Source: Euglena gracilis
Taxonomy: Eukaryota
Assembly (NCBI GenBank): GCA_039621445.1
Contig: CP154954.1
Location: 30,508,395 to 30,572,394, forward strand
Reading direction: 5' to 3'
DNA: 64,000 nucleotides
Position numbers and translations under genes: made by a program. Shown here piece by piece: positions 45,201-49,480 of this stretch (positions are counted from its first letter, which is position 1; each line of letters starts with the position of its first letter). The notes under the pieces were generated by a model. It had not been told where the DNA came from, ran no database searches, and saw only the letters and a list, made by a program, of their open reading frames with translations.

Positions 45201-48200
45201 AGCTGCAGAGCAAAAGTGCTGCCCCACCGTTTGAAATGACGCGGGAGGACGCCATTAAAGGGGTGCTGGATGCCCTCGACCCCTCGGACGTCGTATGCCA
45301 CACTCCTGCCCGCTGCATGTTTCGGCCGACCGCCCACACAATCTGTCCTCAAACCACTACAAACCGTCGCCTGGGGCATTTCCATTTCTGTGAGACGTGT
45401 GAAAGCCACCCAGGCAGCCACCCAACGAGAGATTCAAAGCGACAAACCAATGTGTTGTTGTATTCTTTTGCCATCGCTGTCCTTGTCAGTAGGGTGGTTT
45501 TCTGCTGCCGATTCTGCTGTATATCCCTCTAAACAGCTGGAGTTTCCCATGGTGAGTGTTTTGGAGCTGAGAGCAGGTCAGCAGGTCCGCCCAATTGCAG
45601 TGTGGTGTCCCGGGAGTGAGACAATTTTCGCTCTTTTTGTGCTGTTGGGGTATATCGCTGGGGGGGGGGGACATTTCTGGCGGCCAAACTGTTATGAATT
45701 GTGGCCACGTAGTTGTGGGTTTGGTGCGGCAGCGGCCGGGGCAGCCCCGGGTGGGCACAGGTGGTCAGCACCACGGGCATGACATCGCGGGAGGTGTTCG
45801 AGCACCGGGCGGCGCTGGACGGGCAGCACCACCGCGATTTCCTGACCGTCGGCTGCATGGGCCACGCCAGCAGCATCGCCCAGGCCTGTCCCTCCCCCAG
45901 GTAGCCTGGCTGATGCAGGGTTTGAGTTGGCTGTCAGGGTTTGGGCTGTGGCCAGAGGGACGAGGTTGGGATTGGAGTCGCAGTGGCACCCAGCAGGGGG
46001 ACGGAGCTCCTTGGGGTAATTGTCTTTTGTTTTGGTTGGGTTGCAGGCGCTCCTGACCCATGAAGTTGCAGTCCATCCTTGCTGATTGGCCTCCCACCCA
46101 CTTTCTGAGACCCCTCTCCTCAGGCCATCGCGCTGCAGAAGGCCCACCGGCAGGTGTTTTGCCTGGACGGTGACGGGGCGGTGCTGATGCACATGGGCAG
46201 CCTGGCCACTGCGGGGCAGCTCAGCAAGCACGGCTTACTCGGGGTGTGCCCCACGGGGAGAGGTCCCCCCCCGGGCGGCCGCTGCAGGTATGTGTGTGCT
46301 GCAGGGTGTCGCCGTTTCTGTCCCTCCCTCCCAACGGCAGAACTTCAAGCACGTCGTCATCAACAACGGGGCGCATGACTCTGTCGGCGGGCAGCCCACA
46401 GCGGGTGTGCTTGCTCGGCATTCCAAGAATGTGTCTTTCACATTCAGGGGGGGGGTGTCCTCTTGTCAGTTGATTAGGACCATGAAGATGACCAACTGAA
46501 TCTTCCCATACAGCCCTGCCAGTGCCCTTTGTTCCAGTAGGGGGTGGGCAGTGTTTTTCAAAGGGATCATTTTGTCGAGGATTTTCACAATTTTGATCAT
46601 TTAACATCAACCTCTGCGTTCGGCCTCTCTCTTTCCATCGCGTTTTTTGCTTACGTGTTGTGGTTCTCCGCGTTATTGCCCCCCCCCCCAGCACCCTGGG
46701 GGTTGGCTAATCCCACCCAGTTTGCAGTTTGGAGCCCTTGACAGCTGAATAACTCGGGCCTGGCAGGGAGTTGGGGGTCAAACAAAAAAAGGTGATTCGG
46801 AAAGCCGGGATCCAGTCGCTTGCGCCTGGAAAAAATACCGGGAACGGGGCTGGTAGGAACCACCTGCTCCCCTCGACCTCCCCCCTCCCCATCCCGCCAG
46901 GGGTATCCTAAAGCTGGAGGTGACCCCCCCCCCCGGGGGTCCAGCCAGCCAGCAGACCCTGGGTTGCGGACCCCCCCCCCGAGGGGTCTGCTGAAATAAA
47001 GTTGAGGACAACCTGGCGAAGCTGGACTGGACCAAAAAATATTTCAGCACAAAGTGCCGAAGGTTTTTGGAAAAGGGGTAAAAAATGGCCCAAAATGGCA
47101 TTTTTGAGGAGGTTTTGGGTTTTTATCCACAGATCAATTGGGCTTTTTGCCTGGTTTCGGGGTACCAGCCGGGTACCAGCCAGCACTTTTTTCCAGCCGG
47201 CCTGTGGGACCACCTCCCCCCCCCCCGGGTCTTTGAAGTAATCCCTGAAGCCTGCCCCCCCCATCCTCCCCGGCAGGCTTCGACGTGTCGCTGCCAGGGG
47301 TGGCGGCGGCCTGCGCGTACCGCACGGTGCTGCCGCGCTGCGAGCAAGCACCTCTGATGATGCTGGGCGATGCTGAGCAATGCTGGGCGATGCTGGATTT
47401 TTGGAGACCAGAGGTGGGGTTCCGATGCTGGGCGATGCTGGGCGATGCTGGGCGATGCTGGCATTTTTTGTATGGTTTGAAGAATTACCCCCCCCCCCCT
47501 AGTCGTACGACCACCCCTCATTTACGACCACCCCCCGGTCACAGGTTGCAGGTCATGGGGTGTTATGACCACCCCCCCCGGTCACAGGTTGCAGGTTACG
47601 AAAATTTTAACACCACTTCACCTATGACCGCCCCCGCATTTACGACCACCCCCCGGTCACAGGTTGCAGGTTATGGGGGTGTTACGACCACCCCCCCCCC
47701 GGTCACAGGTTGCAGGAACCCGGTCGTACGACTAGGGGGGGGGGTAAATCCATTTTTAGGATAATTTTCCCTCAAGTCTCCAATATAACACCCATTTTGG
47801 CCATTTTGGGTCCATTTTTCGCTAATTTGGGGCGATTTGGGCAAATATTGGGCTAATTTGGGTCAATGTGAACATTTTTATGGCATTTTTGGCCATTTTG
47901 TGCCATTTTGGTGATTTTGGGTATTTTTTGTGGATTTTTGTGAATCTTTTGTGGGCATTGTCGGCATTTTTGAGCTAATTTAGGTTATTTCAAGCCATTT
48001 TAGGTCATTTTTGGTTGCTCTTTGGGGTTTTTGTGGTCTTGTGCAGCCAATGGATGCAGACATCAGGCAAGGTGCAGATAATGGGCAAGATGCAGATGCT
48101 GAACAAGATGCAGATGCTAGACAAGATGCAGATGCTGGACAAGATGCAGATGCTGGACAAGATGCAGATGCTGGACAAGATGCAGTGGTTGCAGATGCTG

Positions 48201-49480
48201 GACAAGATGCAGATGCTGGACAAGAGGAAGATATTGGACAAGATGCAGTGGATGCAGATATTGGACAAGATGAAGATACCGGACAAGATGCAGATACCGG
48301 ACAAGATGCAGTGGATGCAGATACTGGACAAGATTCAGATATTTGGACAAGTTTCAATGGATGCAGGTACTGGACAAGATGCACACACTGGACAAGATGC
48401 AGTGGTTGTAGATATTGGACAACATGCAAATGGATGCAGCTACTGGACAAGATGTAGATATTGGACAAGGGTGCAGATTCCACACATGATGCAAATTTTG
48501 GACAAGATGTCGATATTTGACAAGATGCAGACACTGGACTAGATGCAGATGCCAGTCAAGATGCAGATGTTGGACAAGATGCAGTGGATGCGGTCATTGG
48601 ACAAGGTGCAATTTCTGCAGATACTGGGTTTGTGCGGTGGATGCAGATGCTGGATTGGCCAAATAAATTTCGGAATCAAGGGAGCTTGCGGCCAAAGCTG
48701 AGTGAAGTTGGGCAAAGTGGCCAAAAGTGGCCAAAAGTGGCCAAAGTTGTACACCTGGATAAATGACCAAAAGTGGACAAAAGCAGATGAAATGGTTGCA
48801 GATGCTGTTTTGGATGCTCAGGATGCAGGTATCTGAGTAGATGCAGGTGCAGGAGGTGCACCTCTAAGGGCTTCAAAGGCGCTGCTGAGCGATGCTGGGC
48901 GATGCTGGGCGATGCAGGGCGATGCTGGGCCCAAGTGTATGGCTGACCAGAGGTGCTTGGCTGCGAGGCCCAGCAGGACCTGCTGGCGGCGGTGGCCGGG
49001 CTCCGGGCGGCGGAGGGGCCGGCGCTGCTGGAGGTGCGGGTGCGCACCGGCGCCCGCAAGGACCTCGGGCGGCCCACGGCCGAGGCCCGGCTCAGAGCCC
49101 AGCAGTGAAGGGGAAGGGCGGAGGAGGTCGTCCAGAGCCAGTTGTCAATGTGTGCAGATATGTGTGCCACGGAGGCATACACCACCACACACGTTATCTG
49201 TGTCCGTGGGTGCGTTAGCGCGCGCACGCGTGTGTGTGAGAGTTTGTTATCTGCAGAATTCCCAGCGTTCTCAAGCAGATTTATTTTTCAAGAAGTTCGC
49301 CCTCCCCTTCCCGTGTTTGGGTGGGGCTGGCTATGGGCAGGCTGGGAAGGTCTTACGGGATGGCATTTCGAACTCCTTGGGGAGGGTTGGGTCGGCCCCA
49401 TTGGCCACTGAGATGGTTCCCGGGAGGCAACCACCCCTGTCCAGAACAAGCAGGCGTTTATGCAGTTCCTCGCTTCCTGA
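30291..49480 (+). CDS. aepY: Phosphonopyruvate decarboxylase (ThDP-dependent; 2-aminoethylphosphonate biosynthesis), 13 exons, with predicted mitochondrial presequence
   Basis: Exons 30291-30413, 30704-30809, 38945-39019, 39939-40114, 40481-40501, 43606-43679, 45178-45292, 45761-45883, 46124-46243, 46341-46404, 47277-47341, 48965-~49078 and ~49430-49480. Motifs: FFCGVPDSLLK, AANEG, VYLQNSGLGN, IGWRGEPGVKDEPQH, VSTTGMTSRE, FLTVGCMGHASS, DGDGAVLMHMG, NNGAHDSVGGQPT, RKDLGRPT..P..NK..FM. Confidence 0.95.
31283..36324. mobile_element. ~5-kb TIR element with 5-bp TSD in aepY intron 2
   Basis: 20-bp TIR CTTAGGCGGCCTAACTCGCA / TGCGAGTTAGGCCGCCTAAG, flanked by CCGGA on both sides. Contains many TTGCGC-N4-GCGCAA motifs. 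Confidence 0.75.
33733..34785. repeat. Tandem array of ~213-bp units, 5 copies
   Basis: CTAAATGTGCT unit starts at 33733, 33945, 34158, 34371 and 34584. Confidence 0.92.
40115..40265. repeat. (GT)n microsatellite starting exactly at an intron donor
   Basis: ...TACCAG|GTGTGT... followed by about 150 bp of perfect GT. Confidence 0.95.
40725..42680. repeat. Dispersed repeat, homologous to ~62750-64000
   Basis: Collinear shared blocks, e.g. GATTTGGCAC(T/C)GGC, AAAATGATGTCGGTGTG, GAGCTGGAAAATGAATG, TTGCCCACATCAACC, ACCAAACAGACTGTTT. Confidence 0.8.
41403..41991. mobile_element. hAT-like MITE containing an AT-only low-complexity tract (~41427-41625)
   Basis: TIR CAGGGAATTTCTTAAG / CTTAAGAAATTCCCTG and TSD TTTTGAAT. 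It is absent from the paralogous repeat at ~63370. Its interior resembles 5290-5578. Confidence 0.88.
47345..48959. mobile_element. hAT-like non-autonomous TIR element (family B) inserted in an aepY coding exon; probable nonconventional intron 47342-48964
   Basis: Perfect 12-bp TIR CAAGCACCTCTG/CAGAGGTGCTTG and perfect 8-bp TSD GCTGCGAG (47337-47344, 48960-48967). GCGATGCTGG subterminal repeats and an internal 18-bp minisatellite. Confidence 0.92.
47488..47744. mobile_element. TA-flanked MITE nested in the exon-inserted element
   Basis: polyC-TAGTCGTACGACC / GGTCGTACGACTA-polyG ends, flanked by TA. A second copy lies at 59236-59493. Confidence 0.8.

Follow-up and report, generated by a model that had tools for sequence, protein, structure and literature searches.

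The origin of euglenid nonconventional introns and the mechanism of their removal have been open for decades. A locus of Euglena gracilis raises the question of whether a DNA transposon lying within a conserved coding exon can be removed from RNA as such an intron. In the 64,000-nucleotide stretch analysed (contig CP154954.1, positions 30,508,395 to 30,572,394; hereafter the window), an element of 1615 bp, bounded by inverted ends of 12 bp and by an 8-bp target-site duplication (TSD), all perfect, interrupts an exon, conserved at the codon level, of a gene for phosphonopyruvate decarboxylase (47345-48959; Table 1), a structure read directly from the sequence and already recognized in the initial annotation. 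It is very probably a non-autonomous cut-and-paste transposon of a multi-copy family, inserted in the exon and removed by the cell as a nonconventional (non-GT-AG) intron.

The host gene and the inserted element

The host gene is delimited by alignment of P0001, an E. gracilis transcript protein (eukprot EG_transcript_15698), at 90-100% identity per aligned piece, values below 97% occurring only where alignments overrun exon ends. Its exons match TIGR03297 and PF02775 and have 98-100% identity to P0001. Introns 1-4, 6, 7, 9 and 10 (n = 8) have GT-AG borders and intron 8, the junction of which can slide by 6 nt, is best read in its GC-AG register; these conventional introns begin with donors of the GTGTGC or GTATGC type and end in acceptors rich in pyrimidines. 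Two further introns of the gene are not of this type. The first (40502-43605) is an older nonconventional intron that matches the published code exactly and is without a remaining duplication. The second follows the exon downstream of the element, where nine reads of RNA-seq library X21 and the X15 transcript contig have loose ends after 49077 and reads pick up again at 49429. The downstream exons had been proposed to run to a stop at 49106-49108, which is not so: this stop is unused because it is contained in intron 49078-49428, and the true stop, TGA at 49478-49480, yields the C-terminus found in the orthologues P0002 and P0004.

Read-through from the upstream exon meets a stop ending at 47764, as initially annotated. 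The subterminal architecture at the 5' end of the element (47359-47461) is common to a sibling copy (16136-18071) and to a relative at 99-2682, and the internal 18-bp satellite recurs in the sibling and at 1300-1760. The small element nested within the first (47488-47744) is missing from the sibling; its ends consist of a C-run plus TAGTCGTACGACC and the reverse complement, TA stands on both flanks, and DNA word depth exceeds 1 million in these bins. Across the parts of the host element, word depth surpasses that of the unique flanks by a factor of thousands. MITEs are usually defined as non-coding elements, abundant in the genome and short (typically below about 1 kb), that have inverted ends and a duplication. 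At 1615 bp, or 1358 bp without the nested element, the host element exceeds this size, and 'non-autonomous TIR element' is the more cautious term.

Table 1. Coordinates of the gene, the element and related copies in the window.
Feature	Position	Strand	Basis
Related subfamily copy, element 99-2682, ends CAAGCACCTATAGT, duplication CCCATATG	91..2690	+	
Sibling copy, element 16136-18071, duplication GAAGGCAC	16128..18079	+	Duplication copies at 16128-16135 and 18072-18079
Phosphonopyruvate decarboxylase (Ppd/AepY-like) gene, 13 exons, start codon to TGA	30348..49480	+	tblastn of P0001, RNA joints
Older nonconventional intron, same gene: GAG-CAG...CTG-TGGTG, then A	40502..43605	+	Loose end before 43606
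Exon upstream of element, end according to the 3+5 register	47277..47341	+	RNA joints 46403>47276 and 47336>48960
Left copy of 8-bp TSD, GCTGCGAG	47337..47344	+	
Intron in the probable 3+5 register: GAG-CAA...TTG-GCTGC, then G; 1623 nt	47342..48964	+	Length from RNA joints, register from published model
Non-autonomous inverted-repeat transposon, 1615 bp, 49% G+C, mainly tandem repeats	47345..48959	+	
5' terminal inverted repeat, CAAGCACCTCTG	47345..47356	+	
Subterminal 10-bp repeats (GATGCTGGGC), broken by internal inverted terminus copy (CCAGAGGTGGGG)	47359..47461	+	
Unrelated small inverted-repeat element nested in the first	47488..47744	.	Comparison with sibling copy
Internal 18-bp satellite (CAAGATGCAGATGCTGGA), ~30 copies	48068..48584	+	
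3' subterminal 10-bp repeats	48878..48930	+	
3' terminal inverted repeat, CAGAGGTGCTTG	48948..48959	+	
Right copy of 8-bp TSD, GCTGCGAG	48960..48967	+	
Exon downstream of element	48965..49077	+	X15 contig piece 48960-49077; loose ends past 49077
Further non-GT-AG intron (GG..GC)	49078..49428	+	RNA loose ends resuming at 49429

Exact removal of the element from RNA

Exact removal from RNA of the element plus one copy of the duplication is observed. The RNA joint 47336>48960 omits 1623 bases, with eight bases that fit either side, and occurs in two raw-read RNA-seq libraries from different studies, X21 (five reads, five start points) and X24 (four reads, two start points), hence at only 4-5 junction reads per run; in X15 it is carried by one 1193-nt transcript contig at a depth of 261. 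P0001 reads VLPRCEAQQDLP uninterrupted across the insertion site, where the orthologues P0002 and P0004 are colinear without a gap. RNA-seq across the site had been named as the decisive check, and the single-TSD product predicted is the one found in all three datasets. The initial annotation described the element as 'becoming' a nonconventional intron; the intron role stands and the 'becoming' does not, because the RNA joints and P0001 run straight across the site, as expected of an intron already at work.

Spliced-looking RNA could also come from an empty-site allele or a paralogue, with the filled allele silent or degraded. Several alleles do exist, given that at least three haplotypes are visible at the variable flanking sites 47296 and 48984 across runs, and the DNA side consists of a single run, X1, in contigs, which drop rare variants. 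Within that limit, no X1 contig contains the joint, while X1 contigs from either flank extend into the ends of the element, by 19 and at least 25 bases (short of the 31-base bridging criterion); X1 record 7 spans 48941-49227, and the X1 contig over 47296 reaches at least 73 bases each way. Two haplotypes carry the element, since X1 differs from the window at 47296. The X15 transcript contig bears the window's own bases at both variable sites, and the filled copy retains an intact, in-frame downstream exon. An empty-site source is therefore judged very unlikely.

Splice borders and register

Spliced reads fit any of nine registers, all of which give the same mRNA, and none of the nine has GT-AG, GC-AG or AT-AC borders, in agreement with the earlier claim that no register gives GT-AG or GC-AG; for this reason the element behaves as a nonconventional intron. 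That the conventional spliceosome removes it through non-canonical sites is highly improbable. Nothing specific favours such removal, though intron 8 demonstrates that a junction able to slide may conceal conventional sites, and no register combines a GT, GC or AT start with an AG or AC end. Moreover, the 3' end of the element is purine-rich and without the pyrimidine tract of the gene's conventional introns, and the element's two ends pair into a helix of the kind usual for nonconventional introns.

Given the 8-base ambiguity, the upstream exon may end anywhere from 47336 to 47344, and the register is assigned from the published model. Register 5 (intron 47342-48964) has six of the seven junction features in section 8 of PMC3935182. 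It is the only register with both CA at +4,+5 and TG at -7,-6, and it places a pyrimidine before and a purine after the cut at both junctions; the C at downstream exon position 3 is absent. In the accessible portion of PMC12501133, spacers are experimentally defined as 3 nt (5') and 5-6 nt (3'), with a purine first in the downstream exon. The 3-nt GAG and 5-nt GCTGC spacers and the G that follows are compatible with this spacing, with cut sites placed by the model within the 8-nt ambiguity of the joint.

The paired terminal triplets were expected to be CAG/CTG but are CAA/TTG in the sole register with 3/5 spacing. CDG/CH'G triplets are absent, no register having CDG at +4..+6, and the element stands outside that code because its third triplet base pair is A:U, not G:C. 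According to the accessible portion of PMC12501133, changing one base of CAG or CTG was enough to abolish splicing in a knock-in assay, and its main text does not report a compensatory pair as in CAA/TTG as tested. The same source found the CDG/CH'G code in 61.2% of nonconventional introns; the code thus does not define all of them. It would be widened by this locus, where a natural CAA/TTG intron, in the register preferred here, is spliced.

The two inverted ends would pair in RNA as a 12-bp helix, bringing the duplication copies side by side, and the ends with their flanks are predicted to cofold at -41.7 kcal/mol with this helix kept. On the 5' side, the nonconventional splicing machinery would then cut 3 nt ahead of this helix and, on the 3' side, 5 nt past it, with ligation of the exons to follow. 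Because 3 + 5 equals the 8-bp duplication, CA...TG-ended elements should be scarlessly removable wherever positions 5 and 6 of the duplication are a pyrimidine and a purine, respectively. The initial annotation had equated 3 + 5 with one TSD and a scarless cut: exact removal is borne out by the RNA joints, and the proposed register is consistent with everything seen. The argument is strengthened by seven further elements in the window with CA...TG ends and 8-bp duplications, together with the published junction rules (PMC3935182; PMC12501133, accessible portion). Among the joints listed, none is a back-joint of the kind a circular excised RNA would give.

A hairpin of this kind could also mislead. 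Direct repeats beside a strong stem are a classic setting for template switching, and the joint might be a reverse-transcription artefact between the 8-nt direct repeats drawn together by the hairpin. This is exceedingly unlikely, as the identical joint recurs in two raw libraries of different studies and at depth in the X15 contig, and in P0001, a protein from an older transcriptome. Inside the element, the listed joints come from contigs of the DNA run and connect internal repeats, except one X24 read (48247>48359); none connects the flanking exons in another way. In addition, in vivo removal of nonconventional introns in Euglena has been followed by a phenotypic read-out (PMC12501133, accessible portion).

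The element family and its class

The sibling, initially annotated as having identical 12-bp ends and its own TSD, is confirmed by direct reading, and its terminal regions are 94-96% identical to those of the exonic element (repeat families D14, D17). All three CAAGCACC copies in the window have an 8-bp duplication. One is exonic and spliced, the only one of the three demonstrated in an exon; the 99-2682 copy sits in CA-rich non-coding DNA upstream of an exon of a DRMBL-family gene; and the flanks of the third are without a protein match, a protein search of the sibling's right flank having returned none.

Inverted pairs of 10 bp or more with direct repeats on their flanks were sought across the window; 13 rows had repeats of at least 7 bp, of which five were dropped (two duplicates shifted by one base, one 42-bp palindrome at 34843-34884 and two with 7 bp only). 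Eight elements with exact 8-bp duplications are left, all beginning with CA (CAG in four) and with CA...TG ends throughout. In first-order Markov simulations, a single pair with a repeat of at least 7 bp arose in one of 30 windows, an expectation of ~0.03 per window against the eight seen; a chance origin is excluded. Generation of the 8-nt repeat by double-strand-break repair with captured filler DNA, as proposed for the repeat at a newly gained E. agilis gapC intron (PMC4770533, accessible portion), is scarcely credible here, given same-ended copies elsewhere, whose perfect 8-bp duplications differ from locus to locus, as well as perfect terminal inverted repeats and subterminal repeats. Perfect inverted ends, subterminal repeats and locus-specific duplications together constitute a signature of transposase-mediated insertion. 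No transposase was found in the 64-kb window, and none stood out by eye among the listed ORFs of at least 110 aa (243 in all) or in 31.2-36.4 kb.

The 8-bp duplication makes the element a candidate member of the hAT superfamily. Such duplications are also made by other superfamilies (P and some others), and hAT elements have the terminal motif YARNG and a weak target consensus, nTnnnnAn. The end CAAGC matches YARNG at four of five positions. Among the eight duplications in the window, A occurs at position 7 in six (binomial p 0.002) and T at position 2 in only three.

The splicing code as a possible footprint of transposition

In the published junction consensus, CA occupies +4,+5 and TG -7,-6, and an identical Y|R marks the two junctions (PMC3935182; PMC12501133, accessible portion); this consensus may be an imprint of transposon ends and a split duplication. 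It is a serious though still tentative possibility that the entire nonconventional splicing code of Euglena was left behind by one class of 8-bp-duplication (hAT-like) transposons as their footprint. The transposon termini would then persist as the conserved CA...TG (CAG...CTG), the duplication, once split, would supply the 3-nt and the 5-nt spacer, and the identical Y|R would arise because both junctions copy duplication positions 5|6. A pyrimidine occurs at position 5 in only three of the eight duplications in the window; the Y|R is therefore not a target preference and must stem from selection on splicing. The spacer rule and the symmetric Y|R become a quantitative prediction, that junction repeats are capped at 8 nt and split 5|3, which is testable on existing E. 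gracilis and E. agilis genomes and with the existing knock-in assay. If the footprint proposal is true, hundreds of thousands of such introns are domesticated or tolerated insertions of these elements, and the removal machinery evolved, or was recruited from the system by which the transposon itself recognizes its ends, to measure exactly one duplication.

Comparison with known systems

Maize Ds, a hAT element, is reportedly spliced from host transcripts (work ascribed to Giroux et al. in 1994). Like the element here, it is non-autonomous, makes an 8-bp target duplication and acts as an intron after exon insertion, but it uses spliceosomal sites and its removal is usually imprecise, whereas removal here is exact. 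Introners of Micromonas, dinoflagellates and others are likewise multi-copy DNA transposons with inverted ends and a target duplication, the insertion of which in an exon creates an intron and the duplication of which makes removal exact (review PMC11282704). However, they are removed by the spliceosome, with GT/GC-AG supplied by the element or its 3-5 bp duplication; the present element is removed without canonical sites and its 8-bp duplication is divided 3+5, with one exonic copy demonstrated. The non-canonical, MITE-derived introns of the tunicate Fritillaria borealis share species specificity, inverted ends, target duplications and non-GT-AG borders, but are removed by an adapted spliceosome at AG-AC or AG-AT borders, while the euglenid pathway is thought to be separate from the spliceosome and releases full-length circles (PMC11282704).

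A transposon origin for these introns had been flagged as possibly proposed already, and it has been: Milanowski et al. put forward a MITE-like origin in 2014, with inverted repeats as the sole evidence and at a time without a known euglenid transposon (PMC3935182), and it was still a suggestion in a 2024 review (PMC11282704) and in the 2025 splicing-code paper of Nomura et al. (PMC12501133, accessible portion). In the literature found, no euglenid transposon family serving as a nonconventional intron is named, and no paper ties the 3+5 spacing to an 8-bp duplication; subscription papers or supplements could hold either. A comparable published case, gapC intron 4 of Euglena agilis ACOI 323, is also a recently gained, strain-specific nonconventional intron with 8-nt junction direct repeats, but these were ascribed to double-strand-break repair, and the accessible portion of PMC4770533 reports no family copies.

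With euglenid nonconventional introns in general, the element shares the lack of GT-AG borders, the paired-end helix, direct repeats at the junctions, CA at +4,+5 and TG at -7,-6, Y|R at both junctions and a fit to the 3-nt and 5-nt spacers (PMC3935182; PMC12501133, accessible portion). Unlike typical members, it is long (1623 nt), has a second element nested within it and is a recognizable transposon with perfect 12-bp ends, a perfect 8-bp duplication and siblings elsewhere. It thus offers a tangible instance of the transposon origin long suspected for the nonconventional introns of Euglena and supplies the missing object, an identifiable transposon family at different loci with their own 8-bp duplications, one copy of which is excised exactly according to RNA.

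Excision of the element from aepY transcripts

A transposon serves as a nonconventional intron in the phosphonopyruvate decarboxylase gene (Ppd/AepY-like; aepY) of Euglena gracilis, a real and RNA-verified case. Four public runs were aligned to 43400-49400, namely two of raw RNA-seq (X21 and X24), one contig set presumed to be RNA (X15) and one DNA contig set (X1). A joint linking position 47336 to 48960 occurs in five X21 reads with five starts, in four X24 reads with two starts and in one 1193-nt X15 contig (depth 261), and in none of the X1 contigs. It skips 1623 bases, the sum of the element (1615) and one duplication (8), and eight bases fit either side. 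This is the product with a single duplication that the initial annotation had predicted for RNA-seq across the site, found here in X21, X24 and X15. As also claimed there, none of the nine compatible registers is GT-AG or GC-AG; AT-AC is likewise absent. The inner CTG/CAG within the inverted ends (47354-47356, 48948-48950) were considered as alternative sites and rejected, since the mRNA would then retain 17-18 bases of the element and the observed joint retains none. The original observation is confirmed, and the interpretation placed on it is supported.

Spliced RNA of this kind could instead derive from an empty-site allele in which the element never inserted, an explanation that we regard as very improbable. 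The runs vary at 47296 (A/G) and 48984 (T/C), and at both positions the X15 transcript contig agrees with the window, which argues against such a source, as does the lack of any empty-site contig in DNA run X1. X1 has G at 47296, so its haplotype differs from that of the window, yet its contigs enter the element ends from both flanks (one covers 48941-49227, another reaches 73 bases or more to each side of 47296); because the overlaps with the element, 19 and at least 25 bases, fall under the 31-base bridging rule, this entry is suggestive only. Exonic variants at 47296 and 48984, and also at 45226-45256 and 46159-46180, differ in frequency among the RNA and DNA runs, indicating that at least three haplotypes of the gene are expressed or sequenced. 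The T>C variant at 48984 is the L/P difference between the window and the E. gracilis transcript protein P0001.

The host gene and its other introns

Translations of four exons match TIGR03297 (phosphonopyruvate decarboxylase; E 2.4e-25 to 3.4e-4), that of a fifth has no TIGR03297 match, and one exon of the gene matches PF02775. The top database protein is P0001 (eukprot:EG_transcript_15698; 374 aa, 98% identity to the query exon), the exons of which were placed by tblastn from 30348 to 49078 with five pieces 100% identical and the others 90-98%; pieces below 97% are alignments overrunning exon ends. Such identity marks the organism as E. gracilis or a very close strain. The insertion point lies between the E and A codons of the P0001 stretch VLPRCEAQQDLP, where the orthologues P0002 and P0004 are colinear with P0001. 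The initial annotation took the exons after the element to be intact to the natural stop; the downstream exon ends at 49077, short of the stop at 49106-49108. Beyond 49077, the X15 contig and nine of the X21 reads resume with letters matching the window at 49429, so that 49078-49428 is another non-GT-AG intron. The aepY frame ends at TGA 49478-49480, with a C-terminus that matches the conserved ending of P0002 (GRPTTTPVQNKEAFMQFLAE) and P0004.

GT-AG borders are present in introns 1-4, 6, 7, 9 and 10 of the gene, and a GC-AG register exists for intron 8. The first bases of intron 4 (40115-40480) already belong to a (GT)n microsatellite of ~75 units, whose first unit is the GT donor. The interval 45881-46120, considered as a nonconventional intron (CA..CT ends, 6-nt slide), is read as conventional, given GC-AG and a pyrimidine tract in register 3. 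The last intron (49078-49428) runs from GG to GC and follows neither GT-AG nor the CAG-CTG geometry with 3/5 spacing; the best pairing within it joins CCCGG to CCGGG, at distances of 8 nt and 4 nt from the intron ends.

Probable splice register and a possible origin of its spacing

Two published descriptions of nonconventional junctions bear on the choice of register. The 2014 model places CA at +4,+5 and TG at -7,-6; in it the upstream exon and the intron both end in a pyrimidine, the intron and the downstream exon both begin with a purine, and base 3 of the downstream exon is C (PMC3935182). The experimentally defined 2025 code reads 5'-N3-CDG...CH'G-N5-6|R, with a 5' spacer of strictly 3 nt and an optimal 3' spacer of 5 nt, and is present in 61.2% of nonconventional introns (PMC12501133). 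Among the nine registers compared, only register 5 (intron 47342-48964) has the published helix spacing; it reads GAG-CAA...TTG-GCTGC then G and agrees with six of the seven features of the 2014 model. The CAG/CTG triplets that the initial annotation had paired are CAA/TTG at the element ends, so register 5 departs from the 2025 code at the CDG/CH'G triplet, with A:U in place of G:C as the third pair; the main text of PMC12501133 reports no test of such a compensated A:U third pair. The two element ends cofold at -41.7 kcal/mol with the 12-bp helix intact. Elsewhere in the same gene, the 40502-43605 intron fits the 2025 code exactly (GAG-CAG...CTG-TGGTG then A) and has no residual duplication.

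The spacing itself may follow from transposition. If the transposon ends form the helix and cuts fall 3 nt before and 5 nt after it, an 8-bp duplication means that splicing would take out the element together with exactly one copy of the duplication. Position 5 of the duplication would then supply the final base of both the upstream exon and the intron, and position 6 the opening base of both the intron and the downstream exon, which would explain why the same Y|R consensus is published for both junctions; in the intron element these positions are C and G, respectively. We infer this account from one RNA-verified case plus arithmetic.

Structure and family of the element

Direct reading of the ends and direct repeats bore out the element coordinates of the initial annotation, as well as its sibling copy with identical 12-bp ends and a duplication of its own (see the table). 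All three copies in the window have a common architecture, in which the terminal repeat is followed by 10-bp subterminal tandem repeats and then by an inverted copy of the terminal sequence further inside; an 18-bp satellite is also common to two of the three. The aepY copy contains a nested, unrelated inverted-repeat element that the sibling lacks. DNA word depth in the bins of this nested element exceeds one million, versus ~120 in unique sequence, placing it among the most abundant repeats of the genome.

Coordinates of the elements and associated features
Feature	Position	Length	Ends, repeats and remarks
Intron element	47345-48959	1615 bp	family ends CAAGCACCT; read directly
Left direct repeat	47337-47344	8 bp	GCTGCGAG; read directly
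Right direct repeat	48960-48967	8 bp	GCTGCGAG; read directly
5' inverted end	47345-47356		CAAGCACCTCTG; read directly
3' inverted end	48948-48959		CAGAGGTGCTTG; read directly
Sibling	16136-18071		12-bp ends as in intron element; own repeat GAAGGCAC
Third copy, related subfamily	99-2682		ends CAAGCACCTATAGT; repeat CCCATATG
Nested element	47488-47744	257 bp	ends C-run plus TAGTCGTACGACC, and reverse complement plus G-run; TA both sides
Further copy of nested element	near 59250-59480
Three elements	20508-20992, 22408-22813, 41403-41991	400-600 bp	related ends (CAGGCATTTGCTTAAGG, CAGGCTTTTGCTT, CAGGGAATTTCTTAAG); exact 8-bp duplications
Element	52960-55181	2.2 kb	21-bp inverted ends (CAGACATTCATTTAGTGTGGT); duplication GGGGGAAC
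Element nested in 52960-55181	53924-54893	970 bp	CAGGGATCCT ends; 7-bp flanking repeat
Stretch in second aepY intron (8.1 kb)	31283-36324	5 kb	between 20-bp inverted repeats (CTTAGGCGGCCTAACTCGCA); 5-bp flanking repeat; 213-bp tandem array at 33688-34785
SNM1/PSO2-like gene (DNA-repair metallo-beta-lactamase), exons	2779-8092 (+)		exon starting 2779 comes after AG acceptor
PF07522 (DRMBL) match	7913-8092		E 3.6e-10

In its 8-bp duplication, its short inverted ends and its subterminal repeats the element resembles hAT transposons. Its terminal motif agrees with the hAT consensus at only four of five positions. Other superfamilies also make 8-bp duplications, and the element is thus called hAT-like, a provisional label; 'MITE' is a loose label at 1615 bp. 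Inspection by eye of the listed open reading frames found none resembling a transposase in the window, nor any in 31283-36324. An Rfam scan of 47000-49500 returned no family, and an exact-pattern scan of JGI metagenome contigs gave 0 matches to a 24-base element end.

An introner-like system is plausible. Of the three copies, that in aepY is exonic and spliced, and the third is located in non-coding sequence, upstream of an exon of a DRMBL-family gene. An exonic position for the sibling gained no support, either from an 81-codon open frame across its excision junction, in itself not significant, or from its right flank (18073-18210), for which no protein match was found.

Elements with 8-bp duplications across the window

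Elements that generate 8-bp duplications and end in CA...TG populate this stretch of the genome. Inverted pairs of 10 bp or more, no further than 6 kb apart, were sought and their flanking direct repeats measured, which gave 13 rows with a flanking repeat of at least 7 bp; removal of two one-base-shifted duplicates, a 42-bp palindrome (34843-34884) and two rows with 7 bp left eight elements with exact 8-bp duplications. By comparison, such a pair appeared just once, in one of 30 first-order Markov simulations, giving a mean of 0.03 per window. All eight begin with CA (CAG in four, CAA in three, CAT in one). The CAG...CTG ends of the three related 400-600-bp elements would satisfy the published splicing code if placed in an exon; the 41403-41991 element sits within the old nonconventional intron 40502-43605.

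Counted by eye, position 5 of the eight duplications is a pyrimidine in three, position 6 a purine in seven, position 7 A in six (p 0.002) and position 8 C in four. So few of them have a pyrimidine at position 5 that splicing seems to be what filters for it; the positions after it may reflect target choice.

Comparison with known nonconventional introns

In searches of the openly available full-text literature, no named euglenid transposon family acting as a nonconventional intron was found, nor any link between the 3+5 spacing and an 8-bp duplication; the slide-distance data of PMC12501133 and the Milanowski intron tables may bear on novelty. The initial annotation rightly suspected that a transposon origin had already been proposed, as a MITE-origin hypothesis appears in several papers (PMC3935182, PMC4770533, PMC11282704, PMC12501133, PMC12621601), one of which shows TIR and TSD in a figure legend (PMC11282704, Fig. 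3D). Two published observations offer independent hints of the 3+5 account. One intron with nine possible positions, implying an 8-nt repeat, is mentioned in PMC3935182. In E. agilis gapC, a new, strain-specific intron carries direct repeats of eight nucleotides; PMC4770533 explains them by break repair.
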